In this document: one piece after another, positions 3,801 to 37,832 of the stretch
Layout of the letters: each line of letters opens with the position of its first letter
Numbering within the stretch: position 1 is the stretch's first letter
Source: a virus
Taxonomy: Duplodnaviria; Caudoviricetes
IMG/VR virus record: IMGVR_UViG_3300035208_002115
DNA length: 64,000 bases
Reading direction: 5' to 3' (one strand)
The notes under the pieces: generated by a model
Seen by the model: the letters and a program-made list of their open reading frames with translations, nothing else
What the model was told of the DNA's origin: nothing
The model's database searches: none
Program-made: the position numbers and the translations under genes

Positions 3801-6800
3801 CATTTGAATCACAAGTTACAATTGTACTATATTGGGTAAAAGTAAAAGTACCACCTGTTATTATTACAAAAGAATTTTTTGTGATATCATTATAGACATT
3901 TGTTGGTATACTATAATTGTTCAAATAAACTGCTTTGTTTATATATGAAAAGTCTAACCCAACACCTTGGTCGGGAGTTATATAATTAATCATAGTAGTT
4001 AACCCAGTGACATCACTTTCTGTTGTACCAACTTCTTGGAGATTAACTGTGGTCAGACCCATTTGAATTTTACAAGCAGAACTTACAATAAGTGTTGTAT
4101 CACCACTTAATAATTGAATATTTCCACCATTATCATAAATAAATATTCCCAACCTTTTAAAATATTCCGATGTTCTTGAAAGTGAATTATTTATAACACA
4201 CCCATCTTGTCTAATTGACCCGATTTGAGCTGCCCAATAAAATGAACCTAATCTAATAAAATGAATGTTATCAGTTTCTGTTGTAGATAAATGGATGATA
4301 CCATCGGTGTCAATATAAACATAATATGTACCAATATTATCTGGAATTATATAATCGTTTGTGTCTATTGTATCACCAGACCAACTTATCAATTTGTGAA
4401 ACCCATCATATATAATATATCCACTACCACCAACAATATATAATTCGTTGATGTCGGTTTGAATTAAAACGACTTCTGGTTCTAATCTACCCGAAATTTG
4501 AGTATCTTCAATATAATGTGCAACTTTTTGATTAAAATCATCAACATTTGTGCTACTCCATTCTGGTACATTTATATTTATGTCAATTGCATTTCTATTT
4601 TCAATATCTGCTAATGTTGAACCACTAAAATTTATATCATTCCATGCGATAGTTTCACCAGTATTCATCTTACCATTCAATAATGAATCAATTAATGTTG
4701 ATTGATAATAATTAGTCAATCCAGTATATGATGATAAATCCGAAATTTCATTAGCAGTGTGGGTATGACCTGTTATCGTGTACCCGTTAAGTATATTATT
4801 TATATTTGTTTTTGTATAATAGTATGTATTTATATCAGTTATACTTGATACAACATGACTATGACCAATTAAAGTGTACCCACTTAATAACGATATTGTT
4901 TCACTCTTAGAATAATAATAAGTAGAAATATTATCAATATCACTAACTAAATGAGTATGCCCCGTGTCCGACTTAGAATCCAATGTGGATTGTAAATCAT
5001 TAATATCACTTATTTCATGTGTATGCCCTGTAAGTGAGAACGAATTTGGGTCAATAGTAGTATCAAATCTAAATGATGTGGCATTCCAAATTGCCAGATT
5101 ACCATCTGTTGGTGTATCTTCTCTTGTTGCAACTGGTAATAAATCCCCAATTTGTCCTATTTTAAAAGTTTCACCTGTTTCATCAAATAAAAACCGATAA
5201 TTTGTTGATTGTCCTCTATCTATTTCAATTCCAGCAAATCCTTTAGTTACACCAGTTCCAGTTTCACCACTATTAATATAAATCATATTATCGAATACAT
5301 TTAAATCCTCTGTGTTTATAAATGTAGTAGTACCAGAAACAGTTAAATCACCTGTTATTATTAAATCATTATTGATGATATTATGAGTGTGTCCACTATC
5401 CGATTTTAATGCTAAATTATCATCTGCATATTTTTTTGATATAAGATTTGTATCAGATGTAAATGTTTTATTATTATTATAAGAAATAACATCAGTTATA
5501 TTTCTTGTTCCATCAGTTTTAAGGTATTGTAAATGGTCATCAGCATTTAAACCAGACAAATTACCATGAACTGTCACACCAGCACCACCGCCACCAGATG
5601 TCGTATAAGAAAATGGTAATGGTCTTAAATCTATTAAATTTCCTTGTAGTGTTGTCATATCTGGTGTTACTATAATAGCACAGACTTTAATACTTGATTC
5701 AAGTCCGTGTGTATCAGGTAATGAACCTTTTTCTGCATCATCATATGAATCGAATAATTGTGTGCCATATATCATATTAGCTAATCCAATATTAGCATTA
5801 AAATCTCTTATGACTAAATGTTTTACATATTTACCATTTGGTATATCTACTAATGATTTATTAACAACTGCTATTCCAGTATCACTTGAACCGAGATAAG
5901 TGTTTGATAATGTAATAGTAGTTCCTAAAATAGAATCTACTCTAATCATATTTAAATCCGTGTCACCACTTAAATATACAAAATCCCCAACCTTTACTTC
6001 AGCCGAGAAGTCAATAGATGTTGTAACTGATGTACTACCATTAGTAAAGGTAAATGTACCCCCTGTTAATAATGTGTAATTGGGTAAATTTGGGTTGTTA
6101 TATGATATGTAATTTATTATTCCATTATGATTAAATTGGGAATCAAAATCTCCACCCCAACCACTTGGTGAATAATACCAATTAAAAAATTTAGTTCCAA
6201 CATCTGTTGATAAAATTTCTTGTAAAGTAACACTATCTAATGTAGACTGAACATTTATTTCTGGTAATTTTAATTGCATAGCTGTTGTTCCACTACCACT
6301 GCCAATCGTTGTGGCTAATCCACTATTATCATAAACGAATCCACCAAGACGTGATAAGAAATCATGCACTCTGGTTACAAATGAATCAATTCTTCTCTTA
6401 GATGAATTAACAGTTCCTATACCAGCAGCACCTGAATTTAATACGAAAAAACCCAGATAAATATGAGTGTAATTACTTAATAAATCAGTTGTTAATATTA
6501 TAGTTGAACCAGTTGTAATATAAACGTTCCAAAGATTTGGTTCATATTCTGTTACATCAAAAATAGTATTATCCCATCTTATTTCATCGAAAAAGTTTTC
6601 ATATGCAATATATCCATTACCAGCAAGTACTGTCAATTCTAATGTTCCAGATTTAGATAATAATAATGGATGTGCATAACCTGTGCCTGTTATTAATTCA
6701 ACATTATTAGATAATTTATCTAAAAATCCTTTAACGTTTTGTTGTGTTCCAGTCCAACCTGTATTTACATGTGATATCACATTTTCACCATTTTGGACAA

Positions 6801-8822: not shown

Positions 8823-10166
8823 TTAAATGAATTTTTGACTTTTAACCTTTTCTGGTGGTAATTCACCAACCTCTTTCTTTTTATCTTTCTTAGATGTATC
8901 TTGGGATTCCTTATCTTTTAATTCTTTATCATCTAAATAAATTCGGCCAGTTGTATCTACTATATTTTTAGTATCAAAGAAATCACTAAAATTTAATAAA
9001 TTATTTTGTTGAGAAAGATATTCTTTGTTAGCTTGTAATAATATGTCCAAAATTTTATCAATCTTATCCACAAGATTATTAAAAGCTATCAAACTTTCTT
9101 CCGAGAATATACCGATTGCTTTTTTCTTCTTTTTATTGAAAGAATTTAATATTATTTTGAAAACATACTCAATCTTAGGATGAGATTTTATATTCTTCAG
9201 TGTGGTCTTATTATTTAAAAGATTATAATTTATTTTGAACTTATCTTCTCTAAAAAATGATGGAATCACAAAGTCCCATGCAATAATATCTTCCTTCATG
9301 TTTTCAATATAGTCATTAAATAATAATGATATAAAATCCACATATAACTTATCTTTTGTGATATTTGATGGATTATATTTTCGAATATCTTTTAATTGAC
9401 AGAATTCTAAAAAATTAGTCAGTATTAAAGTATAAATTTGTAAATGTTCAGTTGTATTGTCTTTAACAATTTTTTGATAAAGAGGATTTAAAATTTCAAA
9501 GGTGTAATTAGTGTCACCTTCAATTTTCATGATAATCTTTTCAAGATTTTCATTATAATTTCCATTCTTCATAAGAAATGAAGCTCTGGTGAGAGGATTT
9601 AAAATTTTATAAAAGAACTGGGCGAAATTAGTTTCACCGAATACAAACTTCAAATCTTCTTCCGATGTGGAAAGAAAAAGAGATATAACTTCTATTTGTT
9701 TCGGACTTAACGTACCTTTAAATAGAATAGGTAGTGGCTCAACATCAAATAATTTAGCGTATTCGAATATTTCATCTATATTATAAAAATATCTTGACCC
9801 CTTAACTATACAAGTTAATATCATATTATTTTTTGGTAATCTGTTGTATGTTATATGAGCTGGTTGTTTATCGGGAAAATATTCAAAACAGAACCACCAG
9901 CTTGGACTTAGTAGATTAGTAACATAGTCTGGGAGTGAGTGTAAATACAGATATGCAAAATTATAATACTTCTGTACAGCCAAATCCACAAAGTTTAAAT
10001 CTTCATTTTTAATGGACTTGGGTCGTATATTAAATTTTTCACCATTCCAGTTGACGTATATTCTACTACCTTGGACATCCTCGTAAACTATTAAGTTTTT
10101 ATTGCTAATTTTTTTAAGAAAATGATTCCTTTCCGATTCCTCGTTTAATCTTATTAACTTTGTCAT
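8823..10166 (-). CDS. RNA-ligase (Rnl2)-like fold protein lacking the motif I lysine
   Basis: YEDVQGS where EKxDGS is expected, then FEY, PILFKG and EKIIMK in the order of nucleotidyltransferase motifs. Leader MTKLIRLNEES. Confidence 0.4.
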   Translation of the reverse strand: MTKLIRLNEESERNHFLKKISNKNLIVYEDVQGSRIYVNWNGEKFNIRPKSIKNEDLNFVDLAVQKYYNFAYLYLHSLPDYVTNLLSPSWWFCFEYFPDKQPAHITYNRLPKNNMILTCIVKGSRYFYNIDEIFEYAKLFDVEPLPILFKGTLSPKQIEVISLFLSTSEEDLKFVFGETNFAQFFYKILNPLTRASFLMKNGNYNENLEKIIMKIEGDTNYTFEILNPLYQKIVKDNTTEHLQIYTLILTNFLEFCQLKDIRKYNPSNITKDKLYVDFISLLFNDYIENMKEDIIAWDFVIPSFFREDKFKINYNLLNNKTTLKNIKSHPKIEYVFKIILNSFNKKKKKAIGIFSEESLIAFNNLVDKIDKILDILLQANKEYLSQQNNLLNFSDFFDTKNIVDTTGRIYLDDKELKDKESQDTSKKDKKKEVGELPPEKVKSQKFI

Positions 10167-12290: not shown

Positions 12291-13541
12291 ATGATAAAAT
12301 CAGCAATCGATAACGACCTTTACAAATTCACAATGATGTATGCAATTCTGGTGAATCCAGAACTGATGAATTTGAGAGTTAGGTATGGTTTTTTCAACCG
12401 AAATGATATACAATTCCCAGATGGATTTGATAAAATTTTACAAGGTGAAGTGAATAGAATGGGTTCTTTGCGATTAACTCGTCAAGAAAAACGTTTTATT
12501 ATTAAAAAATTATATTTTTTACCACTTTGGTTTTTCGATTTTCTTGAAGGATATCAATTTGACCCCTCGGAAGTTATTATCAAACAGGAAGGTGGTAATC
12601 TAATGATTGACATCGATGGAAGTTGGTTTCATACAATTCCTTGGGAAGTGCCTCTATTAGCATTAGTATCTGAATTATACCATGAAGTCAATACTGATTA
12701 TGACTTTGATTCACCTGAAAACAGAAAGAAACGTCTGGAAAATAATCGTTGGAAAGCAGACCTGATGGTTAAACATGGTCTTTCAGTTTCTGAGTTCGGT
12801 ACACGCAGACGTTTTTCATTCGATAATCAAAACGAAGTTATTGAAGATTTAAAAAAATATGCAACATCTTCACTTACAGGTACAAGTAATATGTATTTGG
12901 GTTACATTCATGACCTTCCAATACATGGAACAAATGCTCATGAATGGTATATGATTCACGCAGCTTTGTACGGTTATATAATGGCTAACAAGAAAGCTAT
13001 TGATAATTGGATGTGGGCATTCCGAGGAAGTCTTGGTACAGCATTACCCGATACATTCACTACTGATGTTTTTCTCAGAACTTTCGATTTACAGTCTGCT
13101 AAGTTGTATGACAGCACCAGACAAGATAGCGGTGACCCATATAAATTCACGGATAAAATAGTTAATCATTATAATGATTTAAGGATTGACACTGCCTCTA
13201 AAGGTATTATTTATAGTGATGGTATTAATATACCATATGCTATTAAACTAAAAGAATACGCTAAAAATAAAAATATAAAAGATGCCGATGGTATTGGCAC
13301 AGACTTAACCTGTAATTTAGAAGGTGTCAAACCTTTAAATATTGTGATAAAAGTTACACAGGTATATTATCAAGACCATTGGATTGATTGTGTTAAATTA
13401 TCTGATAATATGGGTAAACATACTGGTAAAGCCGAAGAAATTAAAAGATGTAAAGATACCCTCAATATCGGAGATGTAACATATGATAAACAACCATCTG
13501 GTAATGAAGGTGATGTTGCACACGTTAATCTTATAAAATAA
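12291..13541 (+). CDS. pncB: nicotinate phosphoribosyltransferase
   Basis: DNDLYKFTM, EFGTRRRFS, GTSN, GTNAHEW (phospho-His), DTFTT, RQDSGDP, SDG and KLSDNMGKH motifs of E. coli-type PncB. Confidence 0.95.
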   Translation: MIKSAIDNDLYKFTMMYAILVNPELMNLRVRYGFFNRNDIQFPDGFDKILQGEVNRMGSLRLTRQEKRFIIKKLYFLPLWFFDFLEGYQFDPSEVIIKQEGGNLMIDIDGSWFHTIPWEVPLLALVSELYHEVNTDYDFDSPENRKKRLENNRWKADLMVKHGLSVSEFGTRRRFSFDNQNEVIEDLKKYATSSLTGTSNMYLGYIHDLPIHGTNAHEWYMIHAALYGYIMANKKAIDNWMWAFRGSLGTALPDTFTTDVFLRTFDLQSAKLYDSTRQDSGDPYKFTDKIVNHYNDLRIDTASKGIIYSDGINIPYAIKLKEYAKNKNIKDADGIGTDLTCNLEGVKPLNIVIKVTQVYYQDHWIDCVKLSDNMGKHTGKAEEIKRCKDTLNIGDVTYDKQPSGNEGDVAHVNLIK

Positions 13542-14752
13542 TGGGGAATATTTATGTGTTTGCAAAATTATCAATAGATAATAAATCTTATACTGGTGCA
13601 GCTATCGGTTATTCTAATGACTTAGGACTAACAGAAAGAAATGCAATAAAAAATTTGTTAAGTAAAATGAGAAGAAAGGGAGATAATATATGACAGACAG
13701 GATAAAAGGTTTCGTGGTAACTTTGGATAAAGATATCCGAATTGATGATGTTCAACCAATAATGGATGCCATCAAAATGATAAAGGGTGTGATTGATGTA
13801 TCTCCCAGTGTTGCCGATTCAGACGACCACATGAATCGTGAACGTGTTGCACATGAGTTTCGCTCTAAATTCTGGAATTTTATGAATAATGAATTAAAAT
13901 AATGAATCCAGAAACAAGATATCTAATTTTCGAGAATGGTATTTATTTCGGGTATCCACTTTGTTGTATAAAAGAATTTATAAAAGATATTGAAGAAGGT
14001 GGTGAAGCACCATCTAAAAGAGTTAGAAACATTAAAGGAATTGATGGTTCTTTTTGCCCTTGTAGAAAACACACACAGGAAATAGAAGAAGGTAAGATAA
14101 CGCAAGAAGATTTAATTGATGGTAGAGTTTGTCCACATCCATTTCCGATAAGAAACGAAAATGATATTATTGAATCAAAATAATTCATGAAAGAAAATAA
14201 AAAATATATTTTTGAAGTCGATTTTTCTAATATATTTCCTATATTCCACACTTTCAGACTTATCTATGATATTAAAAATTTTTTAAAATTTTGTCATTTT
14301 TTAATATGTTATAAAAATACACCAGTTAAAGGGTTTGAGGGACGGTGCATAAATTGTGCTATTAAGGATACATATTGTGGTAAATTGGATATAGTAAGAT
14401 GTCCAAATAGGTTTGACCGTCATTATGAATTAAGATACTTATTTAAATGGATAAAAAAATTATCATAAAAAATTATATATTGTATTTATCTGAAATATCT
14501 GAATTTTTATCAATCGATAATAAAAAGAAGGTGGCAGATAAAATTAATACTATAAATAATAGTGACTGGACTGTTGAAAAATTGGGTAAACATGATACAT
14601 TAGTACCAATTAGACTTCAGCTTTTTTTGCTTTATCAAGAAATGGAAGTTATGTTTACAATAGAAAATATTAATGAAAAAATAATATGGTTGAAAGATTA
14701 TGAAATTCAATATATTAGAAAATTAAAAATTAATGATATTTTATCAGAGTGA
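13541..14752 (+). other. run of small hypothetical CDS (13541-13693 not in track, 13690-13902, 13902-14183, 14187-14468, 14447-14752)
   Basis: Abutting or overlapping start-stop junctions. The last ORF ends RKLKINDILSE. Confidence 0.6.
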
Positions 14753-14761
14753 TAAAGAATA

Positions 14762-14769
14762 TATATTTG
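14762..14769 (+). promoter_or_regulatory. TAnnTTTG promoter for the RNase P RNA
   Basis: TATATTTG ends 5 nt before the predicted 5' end of P1. Confidence 0.65.
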
Positions 14770-14774
14770 TAATT

Positions 14775-14980
14775 AATTAAACACAGAGGAATCATCGCTC
14801 TACGGAGAGGAAATTCTGGACACATGGGGAGAACGCAGAAGGACTAATAAACCGCTATACTGCATAAGAGTGTGCAACGAAAATTGAACTTGGGTCTTGT
14901 TTCCCACCTATAAGTTCTGGTTTCGGCCTTTAGACAAATGATGATATAAAACGGAATCCAGATTACGCTCATGTTTAATT
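14775..14980 (+). ncRNA. rnpB: minimal RNase P RNA (catalytic domain intact, S-domain vestigial)
   Basis: CR-I GAGGAAAUUCUGGA and CR-V ACGGAAUCCAGAUUA form P4 with the bulged U. P1, P2, P3, P5, P15, P16, P17, the P6 pseudoknot and the L15 GGU can all be paired by hand. Confidence 0.9.
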
Positions 14981-15039
14981 CTAATTTTTTTTATATTTAA
15001 AATGTTTTTATTTTTGTATAATAAACATTTTTAATCATT

Positions 15040-15785
15040 ATGAATGATAATTTTTTAAAGGCACTTGTAAATATTATCAATACTATGGTTGATATGCGGT
15101 CTCATTTATCTAAACCAGAAATAGTTGGTATGTTTTATAAAGACACCAAAGATATTGTCATATATGATGAATTCATGAAAGAATCTAATCTCATTGTAAA
15201 CCATCTGATGAATATCAAATTGGATATTGAGCTAAATCCACATATGAATGATATGATAAATAATCTTTTATTTTCTAATCAGATTTTAATGGTCAAACCT
15301 GATATAATTATACACATTAATGACAGTTTAAAAAGAGACAATAATAAGGAAAAATGGTTGTCTTTTTTCAGATTGATATTAAGTAATAAAAGAACACCAA
15401 ATAAACAAAAAGAATGACAATAGAAATAGGTAATAAAAGTTTTTCGGATTTAACAGCCGATGATATCAAACAAATTATTTTGATAGAAGGTTGTTCGCCA
15501 GTCCCTGAACATTGGAGCGAACCTGTCATAATGGATTTCAACAACACTATGTTCAGTGATACTGTTGTTGCTGATTTTGTGAGTTATAGAAAATCCGATA
15601 ATATGAAAAGTTGCGAATATACCTTTTTCTTCAATTTTAAGGATTTTCATATTCATTACGTGAGGGATTTGTATGTGAGAGATTTGGAAAAAAACAACCC
15701 AGTCTATCGACCGAAGGGGAAGTCCATAAAGTTGGAGACCCTTAAATATCTGATTAAACAAGGCTTTGATGTACCTATTTATTGA
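15040..15785 (+). other. two hypothetical CDS (15040-15417, 15414-15785)
   Basis: TATTTTTG promoter element at 15009-15016 and an ATGA overlap between the ORFs. Confidence 0.6.
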
Positions 15786-15807
15786 TTTAAAAATCAAAAA
15801 ATACAAT

Positions 15808-16966: not shown

Positions 16967-17578
16967 ATGAAAACATTTATTCTTAAACTAAAATTATTTT
17001 TCCTTCTTACTATTGTTATTTTTTTTAAAAAAATAAATCGTTCTTATAATAAAAATTTTCAAGTGACTGCACTTGAAGATGGTAAGAAGTATTGGATTTC
17101 AAGAAGCGTAGCTGTTGACGCTATGATTTTTATTTATAACCGTCTCGACAGAAAATATTATGTTTTGATGGTTAAACGTGGTAAGGGAGTTAGTTATAGT
17201 GGTTATTATTCGTTGCCGTGTGGTTTCATGGATTTTAATGAGAATGGGTTGCAAGCATTGATGAGAGAACTCTGGGAAGAAACCAATCTAAAATTAGCAG
17301 ACTTACTGAAATTCGAAATCTCAGCTAAGTATATTGATATTCCATATTTCGTAAACACCGAACCATTAAAAATTGATAATCAAAATGTGTCATTATATTA
17401 TGGTTTGGTTTTGGTTGTAAATTCATTACCATCAGTGTCAAATATTAATTGTGAACCAAATGAAATAGATGAAGTAAAATGGGTCGAGATATTTGAAGAA
17501 CTTCCAAAGCTGAGTAAGATTGCTTTTAATCACGAAAGACGTGTTGAAGACTTTTGTAAATTAAATAACATTGGGTGA
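16967..17578 (+). CDS. Nudix hydrolase, ADP-ribose pyrophosphatase-like
   Basis: Nudix box GFMDFNENGLQALMRELWEETNL, upstream VAVD..KRG..YSLPCG, and C-terminal AFNH. Confidence 0.9.
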   Translation: MKTFILKLKLFFLLTIVIFFKKINRSYNKNFQVTALEDGKKYWISRSVAVDAMIFIYNRLDRKYYVLMVKRGKGVSYSGYYSLPCGFMDFNENGLQALMRELWEETNLKLADLLKFEISAKYIDIPYFVNTEPLKIDNQNVSLYYGLVLVVNSLPSVSNINCEPNEIDEVKWVEIFEELPKLSKIAFNHERRVEDFCKLNNIG

Positions 17579-20655: not shown

Positions 20656-21070
20656 AATATATAAAAAATTTTTAGATTTATTGACTAAGAATAAAATCTA
20701 TTACAGTATTGATTCTGATTTATTGCCAGATATCGAAACAGTTGTTGATGAATATATCACAGGTGGTGTTGGTGGTAATACCTGTTGGGAAACTGAACAA
20801 TATACAATATACGGTGAATCACCATCATATGAAAATATTTATAGAGTATTTACTTTATTTTTTGGTCAGTCTGATGAAACTTATAATAAGATATTGGAGA
20901 ATAAAATGAATTTTATAGGTGAATATGAAGTAAAGGATACTCCAGATTATTATGGAAATTATATTGATAAATGTTATTTATTTTTAAATTTGAAGGAATT
21001 TTTTAAAATAATACCTGCACATATATTACGTAAATTAAAAATAGAAGATGTTTTTGAAAACGAAATTTAA
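20639..21070 (+). CDS. hypothetical with RxxKI tail
   Basis: GGVGGNTCW motif. Ends RKLKIEDVFENEI. Confidence 0.65.
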   Translation: MTNEDKIYKKFLDLLTKNKIYYSIDSDLLPDIETVVDEYITGGVGGNTCWETEQYTIYGESPSYENIYRVFTLFFGQSDETYNKILENKMNFIGEYEVKDTPDYYGNYIDKCYLFLNLKEFFKIIPAHILRKLKIEDVFENEI

Positions 21071-22796
21071 AGATTTGAGCGTATCCATTCACCAGATTAA
21101 CACAGTTACTGGTGATTTAAGAGGTAACACGGCTAAAATAATAAAAGCAATTCTTATTGACCAAGAAAGGGATATAACTATATCTGCATTTCCTGAGACA
21201 GCAATAACTGGGTATATGTGTGGTTCATTATGGGACACACCGAAGTTTCTTAAAGACCAAATGGATTGTTTGGAGACAATTAAGAAATCTTGTTTACCAT
21301 ATCAGATTGTTACTTTAGGGTTTATATCTTATCATGGTAAGAAAAGAAATGGTTACCCTAAATTAAAGAATTCAGTGGCAATCATTCATGCTGAAAAAAT
21401 ATTTGTTTATGATAAACAATTACTGGCTGACGCTGACCACCATGAAGATAAAAAATATTTCATTGCTGGTAATGAATCGAAAGTATTTGAAGTAACTATT
21501 GGTTCAGCTATGGGTCTTAAAATTGGTTGCCCGATTTGTGAAGACATTTGGTATAAAGACCATAGCAGAAATATAGCACAAGAAATGGTTGAACAGGGTG
21601 CTAATATTTTAATTGTACCAAATCAATCATATTTTTACTATGATAAACAAGAATATCGTTACGACTTACTTTCAAGTATTTCAAGTAATACAAACGTTCC
21701 TGTTATTTATGTAAATTCGGTTGGAGTTGGTGATATTGTAAAAAATATTTTGATTTTTGACGGTGGTTCTCTTGCATATAATAATGAAGGTAGATTGATT
21801 CGTGAAGCTGAAAGATTTAAGGAACAATCTATCAAAGTTAAACCCTTTAGTGATTCACCTATAAAACCCAAAGTAACTGAAAAATACGAAGAAATAACTG
21901 ATGCGTTATTATTCGAACAAAAAGAGTTTTTCCATTTATGTGGCCTGAATAAAGCCCAAGTTCATTTATCTGGTGGGGTGGATAGTGCATTAACCGCAGT
22001 TTTAGTCGCTAAAGCAATGGGTAAAGAAAACACTATTTTCATTACTAATCCATCTGAGTTAAATACTGAAAGTATTAAGTATGCCGAATACACAGCTAAT
22101 AAATTGGGGGTTAAATTATGGGTGAATCCAATTGTTGATATTGTTAGTAAATTAATTGATGTTGACAAAGAATCCTTCAAAGAAAGTAATTTAAAATTAG
22201 AAGGTGCTGGATTGGCTTCGGCTCATGCTGTTTTAAGAACAGTTCAGGGATTAATGGCCTCTCATCGTTTTGGTTCTGGTATCGTGTCAACTGGAAACCA
22301 CACCGAGAATATACTTTCATGGTTTAGTTTTCATGATATTGGTAGCATTGGTGTACATGCTCTAATCGGTGATTTAACTAAAATGGAAATATTTGCCATG
22401 TGTGTTTATCTTAATAAACGATTTGGTGATGTTATACCAGAAGAATTATTGAATGGTATTTTTGTTCCATCGGCTGAACTACCAGATTCAAAAGAAGACC
22501 CGTTTGATTATAAAGTTCAGTCAGGTATATGTGCCGAGGTTATTCGTTTCAGGAAGTCTAAAGAAGATTTAATGTACGAATTTGAGAATAAAATATTATC
22601 AGTCGATTTATTTCCTCATCAGGAACATGTTTATTCTTATTCAAAAGATGAATTCATGAAGCAAATAAATCTCACATTTAAATTGATGAAACGGTCACCA
22701 TACAAGACGGGTCAAGCAGCACCCCCAGTCAACATATCTCCGAGAACAAGAGGGTTTAGTACACGGGAAACCCTGATTAATAAATATGATTATTGA
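21048..22796 (+). CDS. nadE: glutamine-dependent NAD+ synthetase
   Basis: Nitrilase-type glutaminase triad (FPE, YDK, ICEDIW) plus synthetase motifs SGGVDS, STGNHTE, GDLTK and PSAEL. Confidence 0.95.
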   Translation: MFLKTKFKDLSVSIHQINTVTGDLRGNTAKIIKAILIDQERDITISAFPETAITGYMCGSLWDTPKFLKDQMDCLETIKKSCLPYQIVTLGFISYHGKKRNGYPKLKNSVAIIHAEKIFVYDKQLLADADHHEDKKYFIAGNESKVFEVTIGSAMGLKIGCPICEDIWYKDHSRNIAQEMVEQGANILIVPNQSYFYYDKQEYRYDLLSSISSNTNVPVIYVNSVGVGDIVKNILIFDGGSLAYNNEGRLIREAERFKEQSIKVKPFSDSPIKPKVTEKYEEITDALLFEQKEFFHLCGLNKAQVHLSGGVDSALTAVLVAKAMGKENTIFITNPSELNTESIKYAEYTANKLGVKLWVNPIVDIVSKLIDVDKESFKESNLKLEGAGLASAHAVLRTVQGLMASHRFGSGIVSTGNHTENILSWFSFHDIGSIGVHALIGDLTKMEIFAMCVYLNKRFGDVIPEELLNGIFVPSAELPDSKEDPFDYKVQSGICAEVIRFRKSKEDLMYEFENKILSVDLFPHQEHVYSYSKDEFMKQINLTFKLMKRSPYKTGQAAPPVNISPRTRGFSTRETLINKYDY

Positions 22797-37406: not shown

Positions 37407-37832
37407 TTATTCTAAATAAAGTTTTCCATCATCACCTATTACAACTCTTAATTCTCTGAATTCGTGACATATTTTCGATATTTTATCACCGATTTCATAT
37501 CCAATTTCTTTTCTATCCCAGAAACCTGCACCGTGATGATTACGTGTTAACCAGAAATCATGGCCAATCATATCATTAGTAACATTGGTCAAATATTGCC
37601 CTGCTTTTTCCATAAATTGCTCTATTTCTTCTTTAGCTCTGACTCTTGTTTCATCGCTAAAATCGAATATTGTAAAAGCTTTAGCAGAATCATCTCCAAC
37701 TTCTTCAGCCATACGGTCTTCATCTGTCCATAATGCAGTTTCAAAATATGAATTTAATATTTCATCAACATCATGTTCTATTGGTGACGGTTCGGATTGT
37801 GAAAATTCTTCGAATAATTTAAGATGTATCAT
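37407..37832 (-). CDS. acidic protein with leader (MIHLKLFEEF) and GHDFWLTRNHHGAGFWDR motif
   Basis: Leader plus a conserved-looking motif recalled from uncharacterised phage proteins. Confidence 0.7.
   Translation of the reverse strand: MIHLKLFEEFSQSEPSPIEHDVDEILNSYFETALWTDEDRMAEEVGDDSAKAFTIFDFSDETRVRAKEEIEQFMEKAGQYLTNVTNDMIGHDFWLTRNHHGAGFWDRKEIGYEIGDKISKICHEFRELRVVIGDDGKLYLE

Follow-up and report, generated by a model that had tools for sequence, protein, structure and literature searches.

RNase P RNA is one of the few ribozymes common to all cellular life and is treated as a cellular gene; in its bacterial type A form, the specificity domain (S-domain) measures roughly 170 nucleotides (nt). 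The archaeal type T of the Thermoproteaceae (RF02357; PMC3579882) is a naturally small RNase P RNA whose S-domain is degenerate; models of it include P6 and omit P18 (as summarised in PMC5839562). An engineered E. coli catalytic domain (C-domain), Eco CP RPR, is a laboratory truncation without the S-domain (PMC5839562). Deprived of the S-domain, the C-domains of E. coli and Pyrococcus still cleave, whether protein is present or absent, and a P6-like pairing is important for their activity whereas P18 is dispensable (PMC5839562). Here we analyse a 64,000-nt stretch of phage DNA, hereafter the window, which covers positions 61,370-125,369 of a 675,678-base-pair (bp) IMG/VR virus record (IMGVR_UViG_3300035208_002115), and in which positions 14775-14980 of the plus strand (206 nt) hold what, judged from its sequence, is a phage-borne homologue of the catalytic domain of bacterial-type RNase P RNA with almost no specificity domain. 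It belongs to a large family whose members are encoded by big phages rich in tRNAs. Coordinates are those of the window and of its plus strand unless stated otherwise.

Generic searches miss this gene. An Rfam scan of the window at the gathering score matched no family, and at E <= 10 an Rfam scan of the 551 nt around the site matched none of the RNase P families, including bacterial type A (RNaseP_bact_a, RF00010) and type T, the models proposed for a check in a model-made first-pass annotation of the DNA; weak matches at the site to SpR14 and snoRNA models (E about 1) are noise. RF00010 likewise found nothing over the whole 676-kb genome, so that the window RNA is the most divergent family member for Rfam, with no match at all. 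With blastn, neither the region nor two family members gave useful matches among GenBank phages, BLAST being too insensitive for such an RNA. The exact 17-mer of conserved region I (CR-I) matched viral contigs twice, both times within coding sequence and without relation to the RNA, and a metagenome scan for the A/U-type P4 peculiar to the window returned no matches.

Relatives were recovered with a pattern that combined the two universal core strands, leaving three variable P4 positions free on each strand and keeping the spacing of the window. This pattern matched 21 viral contigs of 12-416 kb, with less than one chance match estimated, and most of the matches sit inside tRNA arrays. Because these first relatives were picked by a motif that the window also matches, controls were run on the homology. 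A sequence-only profile of the interior, from which the window and every pattern position were left out (nhmmer), has this site as its single match in the 676-kb genome (E = 1.4e-5). The covariance model R1, for which 14 other phage RNAs but not that of the window were used (200 positions, the pseudoknots P4 and P6 not being in the model), matches 14777-14980 at 105.1 bits (E = 3.7e-25) over model positions 1-200 of 200; the next-best match in the window scores 9.8 bits, and the 676-kb genome contains one copy only. R1 also finds members L016 and L021 (69 and 80 bits), neither of which was used in building it, and both pass the Rfam RNaseP_bact_a cut-off of 100 (118.5 and 106.8 bits, respectively); R1 thus links the window to accepted RNase P RNAs. 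Four other members reach E = 1e-14 to 1e-18 against RNaseP_bact_a. As a further control, a second pattern drawn from J18/2 and J2/4, with P4 untouched, added 24 more members. The window aligns with its relatives over the full length, the specificity-domain remnant and the interhelical strands included, and is about 50-59% identical to the other 20 aligned members. Taken with the covariation described next, the R1 match, the interior-only profile and the members above the RNaseP_bact_a threshold bear out the first-pass identification of a bacterial-type, catalytic-domain-only RNA in a phage.

Covariation supports all the helices, including the pseudoknots P4 and P6. In the 21-sequence alignment used for all pairing statistics (window included; 931 pair cells), standard pairs occupy 93.9% of the cells, compared with 64.2% after shuffling and 33-45% when the partners are slid, and changes on both sides occur in 38 of the 47 pairs. 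The nested helices were fitted by R1, which favours their pairing figures; P4 and P6 are paired in 98.8% and 84.8% of cells, respectively, though they lie outside the model, and P1, P2, P3 and P5 are already clear in a plain MAFFT alignment and in per-sequence searches. P1 joins 14775-14788 with 14968-14980; a small mismatch, C14784/A14785 opposite A14971, splits the helix into 9 bp and 3 bp. Of its cells, 92.4% are paired, and all 11 modelled pairs have double changes. In P2, AUCAUC (14791-14796) and GAUGAU (14940-14945) are complementary at 6/6 positions, 97.1% of cells are paired and all five pairs covary; the P2 and P4 figures give the covariation across related phages that the first pass had suggested looking for. 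P3 is a mini-hairpin at 14798-14807, shorter than first delimited, with 3 bp (CUC/GAG) under a UACG tetraloop; it is paired in 96.7% of cells, and the same hairpin is seen in members L020 and L022. P5 pairs CACA (14821-14824) with UGUG (14871-14874), followed by CAA, with 97.6% of cells paired and three of four pairs covarying.

CR-I (14807-14820) consists of the J3/4 strand GAGGA and the P4 5' strand AAU[U]CUGGA (14812-20), and CR-V (14946-14965) of the J2/4 strand AUAAAACGGAA, the P4 3' strand UCCAGAUU (14957-64) and a following A. All eight pairs of P4 form, with U14815 bulged, as the first pass had described together with its compensatory changes: two U-A pairs of the window are compensatory variants unique among the 21 sequences. 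Members fetched without the use of P4 keep 8/8 pairs and the bulged U through many different sequences, such as AGUUCGCGA/UCGCGGCU, AGCUCAAGA/UCUUGGCU and AACUCCAGA/UCUGGGUU, and the AAUUCUGGA/UCCAGAUU combination of the window is one more such variant, found here only. The arrangement, with 14807-14820 opposite 14951-14964, corresponds to the universal core of RNase P RNAs (clan CL00002), a P4 with a bulged U flanked by GAGGAAA on the 5' side and ACnGAA on the 3' side. The P6 pseudoknot pairs GGGGAG (14826-14831) with UUUCCC (14900-14905), the duplex having an energy of -8.5 kcal/mol. In a cognate test, the own 5' strand beats foreign strands for the own P15-P17 interior in 49 of 51 sequences (p = 8e-10); for the window, two of 50 foreign strands equal the energy of its P6.

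Between the two strands of P5 lie 46 nt, close to the 45 or so first estimated, and their sole structure is a 29-nt remnant of the specificity domain at 14835-14863, which R1 aligns at the position of P7. The reduction of the S-domain thus stands, but the plain hairpin first proposed gives way to a 4-bp stem (GCAG/CUGC), an asymmetric internal loop (AA/GCUAUA) and a 2-bp hairpin whose loop measures 9 nt. Among family members, the outer stem shows covariation, with 92.6% of cells paired, and the 3'-side motif ..UAUAC equals the family consensus. The P7-P14 specificity domain with its T-loop binding site, a defining part of bacterial type A RNA, is not present in the window. On the 3' side of P5 follows J5/15 with GCAA (14874-14877), which the window shares and which reaches at least 90% conservation among 52 other members, its two As occupying the position of E. 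coli A248/A249 as mapped via the Salmonella M1 alignment. The P15-P16-P17 arm (14878-14925) consists of P15 (14878-82/14921-25; 93.7% of cells paired, with covariation in the family), P16 (14886-91/14912-17) and P17 (14892-95/14906-09), the loop of which contains the 3' strand of P6. In its internal loop L15, GGU at 14919-21 aligns with the GGU of the family and is presumably a binding site for the RCCA 3' end of tRNA. P18 is absent, as first noted: only 5 nt (14926-30) separate the 3' strand of P15 from UAGACAAAU at 14931-14939, in the J18/2 position (Rfam consensus uAGAugAAU). All the helices of the first-pass annotation, the P6 pseudoknot and the L15 GGU are therefore found where it had placed them, apart from the shorter span of P3.

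An unconstrained fold recovers P1, part of P4, P15 and P16, and the latter two appear in both the minimum-free-energy and the centroid structure. The folding energy is indistinguishable from that of shuffled sequences (z = 0.06), and neither strand folds better than shuffles; energy thus lends the RNA no support, which is provided instead by homology and covariation. The window has the family residue at 37 of the 38 columns that are conserved in at least 90% of 52 relatives, and these columns include GAGGAA, the bulged U and the C that follows it, GCAA, the AGA..AU strand and AC.GAA. The sole departure is G14953, a position at which four other members also have G.

Given this pattern, we consider it probable that 14775-14980 encodes, as a gene on its own, a miniature RNase P RNA, a ribozyme that matures mainly phage tRNAs, probably together with host RnpA. 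The RNA would be transcribed from its own promoter, would fold around the P4 core and would cut the 5' leaders off tRNA precursors, with the 40 closely packed tRNAs of the phage itself as the main predicted substrates; recognition would proceed via the acceptor stem and the 3' end, not via the T-loop elbow. These 40 tRNA genes form three tight clusters (for example, within genome positions 131,509-140,981 and 605,885-647,053), with a suppressor tRNA standing alone. Only five of the 40 encode the 3' CCA, and about 35 end in the discriminator base and a single C, followed by an A/T-rich spacer. A gene of the CCA-adding-enzyme family (PF01743, 112 bits) was detected at genome positions 398,507-398,896 (minus strand), in an open frame of 843 amino acids (aa), and this enzyme and the RNA together may give the phage its own capacity for tRNA maturation during infection. 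The lone suppressor tRNA, with the anticodon UUA (ochre type), is located at genome positions 37,754-37,827 (minus strand); simple stop-free-frame counts showed no genome-wide recoding of TAG or TGA.

The placement of the gene admits another reading, under which the RNA is an active ribozyme with other main substrates, either tRNA-like structures or hairpins with a suitable 3' end in phage transcripts, or one special tRNA such as the ochre suppressor. The 64-kb window contains no tRNA genes, the nearest ones being at genome positions 37,754 and 131,509 compared with 76,146 for the RNA, so that the gene stands alone, far from the tRNA arrays; furthermore, in an RNA without an S-domain, recognition comes down to the acceptor stem and the 3' end, which fits minihelix-like substrates (PMC5839562), and a suppressor tRNA with the anticodon UUA is indeed encoded in the genome. 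Still, no candidate substrate other than tRNA was identified, and the genomic link seen across the family is to ordinary tRNA arrays; we regard this reading as decidedly unlikely. Within 200 nt of a tRNA gene lie 29 of the 52 family members, whereas 14 of the 52 stand alone like the copy in the window; bacterial and archaeal genome bins hold members as well, on 17 contigs and usually next to arrays of tRNA genes.

RnpA (PF00825) was sought in all six frames of the 676-kb genome, without a match at E <= 10, while the protein was detected in control genomes. Because the phage encodes no RnpA, the host protein is the most probable partner with which the ribozyme would assemble. The same lack, which obliges any holoenzyme to take the host protein, is also compatible with a decoy or hijacker that binds host RnpA or the 3' ends of tRNA precursors and thereby diverts or shuts down the host RNase P, instead of acting as a tRNA-processing enzyme of the phage itself. 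Such a role would agree with a gene that is unlinked to tRNA genes in this genome and accessory, being absent from a sister phage (see below), and with the finding that E. coli constructs become less efficient catalysts when the S-domain is lost (PMC5839562). If it only soaked up protein, however, the RNA would need none of the strands of the active site, yet it retains J5/15, the L15 GGU, J18/2, J2/4, the bulged U and P6 (37/38 conserved columns), and most of the relatives reside within tRNA arrays, which points to tRNA substrates. We therefore consider a decoy unlikely.

The genome that carries the RNA is that of a megaphage with 27.4% G+C; the CheckV completeness of the source record is 98%, and its ends are labelled 'provirus' by IMG/VR. 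A protein encoded next to the RNA gene shares 35% identity with a protein of the 735-kb phage LR756501.1, which marks the source as a megaphage distantly related to the largest described phages (PMC7162821). The RNA gene is situated inside a 287-nt intergenic gap (14753-15039) between two open reading frames (ORFs) of the plus strand, and the G+C content of the gap peaks at the gene, at 0.36-0.45 compared with about 0.2-0.28 in the flanks. It forms part of a 2.1-kb block (13678-15798) that comprises, besides the RNA gene, six small ORFs of unknown function; the small ORFs flanking the RNA matched no Pfam or PHROG family, and the charge of their products is not basic like that of RnpA.

The closest relative found, a phage whose 639,979-bp genome is complete and has direct terminal repeats (IMGVR_UViG_3300037067_007156), shows about 80% DNA identity on both sides of the locus. 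In this sister phage, an unrelated 1.1-kb block of small ORFs (8901-10005 in its own coordinates) replaces the 13678-15798 block of the window, and neither R1 nor RF00010 has a match anywhere in its genome, despite at least 28 tRNA genes. The RNA is therefore accessory and dispensable in this lineage, where the host RNase P evidently suffices, and the locus looks like a hotspot of cassette swaps between the NAPRTase gene and a radical-SAM-like gene. One could accordingly take the copy in the window for a relic, recently acquired or decaying in a variable cassette region and without present function, considering its absence from the sister megaphage, its position as the most divergent member for Rfam and its location among small ORFs of unknown function. 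Decay, though, would first break pairs and core residues, whereas ten out of ten helices are intact, the changes in P4 are compensated, the one departure among 38 conserved positions is shared with four members, and the G+C content is held well above that of the flanks, so that a relic appears very improbable.

Returning to a ribozyme that matures phage tRNAs, several observations weigh against it: none of the Rfam RNase P models detects the window RNA, even at E <= 10; its fold energy is no better than that of shuffles; the promoter motif upstream of it is statistically uninformative, as detailed below; the gene is 38 kb and 55 kb away from the nearest tRNA genes, unlike most of its relatives; the phage encodes no RnpA, and the small proteins flanking the RNA are not RnpA-like; and, as the sister phage lacks the gene, it is an accessory in a variable cassette and not required. 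The conserved strands of the active site argue against the decoy and the relic; the accessory status and the distance from tRNA genes leave both some weight. As for the more general proposition, that large phages carry their own catalytic-domain-only, bacterial-type RNase P ribozyme, which here would be a mobile accessory gene with its own promoter and would use host RnpA, an unknown phage protein or none, we see it as evenly balanced.

The putative promoter is a match to the Bacteroidota -7 promoter motif TAnnTTTG, TATATTTG at 14762-14769, 5 nt upstream of P1. The first pass had read it as a promoter right at the 5' end of the RNA; the motif is indeed there, but it is not enriched: the AT-rich window contains 111 occurrences, with 124 +/- 11 expected, and because the motif is not enriched, we rate this match as just a plausible promoter. 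At the other end, a run of eight U (14985-14992), 5 nt past P1, is a candidate transcription stop. A scan for consensus promoters and terminators returned nothing specific and did not call the eight-U run as a terminator.

Among the neighbours on the plus strand, the ORF directly upstream of the RNA (14447-14752; 101 aa) ends in ...YIRKLKINDILSE, which fits a C-terminal tail R-x-x-K-[IL]-x-x-[IL]. Genes of NAD salvage cluster around the RNA gene on the same strand, namely, those for NAPRTase (12291-13541), a NUDIX hydrolase (16967-17578) and NAD synthetase (21048-22796). An alternative genetic code as the cause of the short ORFs was considered and rejected, given that recoding of TAG or TGA adds little coding density; the count for recoding of TAA, obtained like the others from simple stop-free frames, carries no signal at 27% GC.

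Individual members of the family merit mention. The 735-kb genome of LR756501.1, the 'largest phage', contains a mini RNase P RNA at 181,309-181,539 on the minus strand (101.8 bits to R1), with a rewired P4 (AGUUCGCGA/UCGCGGCU) and no tRNA gene within 1.5 kb; the record is unannotated, and the paper describing the genome makes no mention of RNase P (PMC7162821). The cultured isolate Achromobacter anxifer LMG 26857 (NZ_CAHLAR010000005.1, 6075-6298) has a mini RNase P RNA with 110 bits to R1, surrounded by an array in which 32 tRNA genes occupy 8 kb; presumably part of a prophage or mobile element, this copy would lend itself well to experiments. In member L011 (7800-7998, plus strand), the strand at the 3' position of P2, GACGGUU, has its complement, AACCGUC, downstream of P4 and not upstream, so that the P1/P2 topology may be rearranged or the 5' end truncated. 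Member L005 lies on a 416-kb phage contig whose minus strand has, within 426-1037 and a few kb from the mini RNase P RNA, two adjoining or overlapping matches, one to a group I intron (426-667, 91 bits) and one to tmRNA (652-1037, 80 bits).

In the literature covered by a search of limited coverage, which included a 2024 review of RNase P and the LR756501.1 paper, we found no report of a phage-encoded RNase P RNA; within that literature, a conserved phage-borne version would be the first virus-encoded RNase P ribozyme on record that we found. As a natural counterpart of the C-domain-only constructs of the laboratory, it would offer a test of how much RNA is needed for accurate tRNA processing, and the wide natural set of P4 variants could indicate which parts of the active-site helix have to stay constant. 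If the assignment is true, the freely rewired P4 would show that catalysis does not depend on the base sequence of this helix, which hardly varies in cells, and the maturation of the CCA-less, tightly packed tRNA precursors of the phage could be independent of the host enzyme or dominant over it. Processing of 5' ends would thereby join the tRNAs, synthetases and CCA-adding enzyme already known as translation tools of phages, and phage and host might compete for RnpA. Standard annotation pipelines miss such genes, as the copy in LR756501.1 illustrates.

Compared with the known RNase P RNAs, the window RNA is closest in layout to bacterial type A (RF00010; rnpB, the M1 RNA of E. coli and Salmonella), with the same organisation and order of the catalytic domain, P1-P6, P15-P17 and GGU in L15, and the same unpaired core strands, GAGGAAA, GCAA, uAGAnAAAU and ACnGAA. 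In a direct comparison, for which the Salmonella M1 RNA was aligned to RF00010 (316.8 bits), the strands of the window fall at J3/4-P4, J5/15, L15, J18/2 and J2/4. The differences are those of size and of setting: type A RNA measures about 377 nt as against about 206 nt in the window, which is without P8-P14 (a 29-nt P7-like stub is present instead) and without P18, and in which P3 is down to 3 bp and a tetraloop. Three pairs of P4 also differ, AAUUCUGGA/UCCAGAUU in the window in place of AAGUCCGGG/CCCGGCUU, and, unlike type A, the RNA is phage-encoded without a cognate rnpA and is missed by RF00010. The parallel with type T drawn in the first pass holds for the architecture and not for a match to the type T model, which gave none at E <= 10; type T is an archaeal lineage with archaeal proteins, whereas the window RNA has a bacterial-type P15-P17 arm with the L15 GGU and core strands resembling the bacterial ones, so that the likeness is one of convergent reduction and not of membership. 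With Eco CP RPR, the phage RNA shares the set of parts, keeping P6 and dropping P18; unlike that construct, it is a natural conserved gene with a small conserved stub at the site of the S-domain. Its nearest kin are the phage mini RNase P RNAs themselves (for example, LR756501.1 181309-181539), which are of the same size class, carry the stub and lack P18; among them, the window copy is set apart as a stand-alone gene in a 676-kb megaphage, with a unique P4 and no Rfam match.

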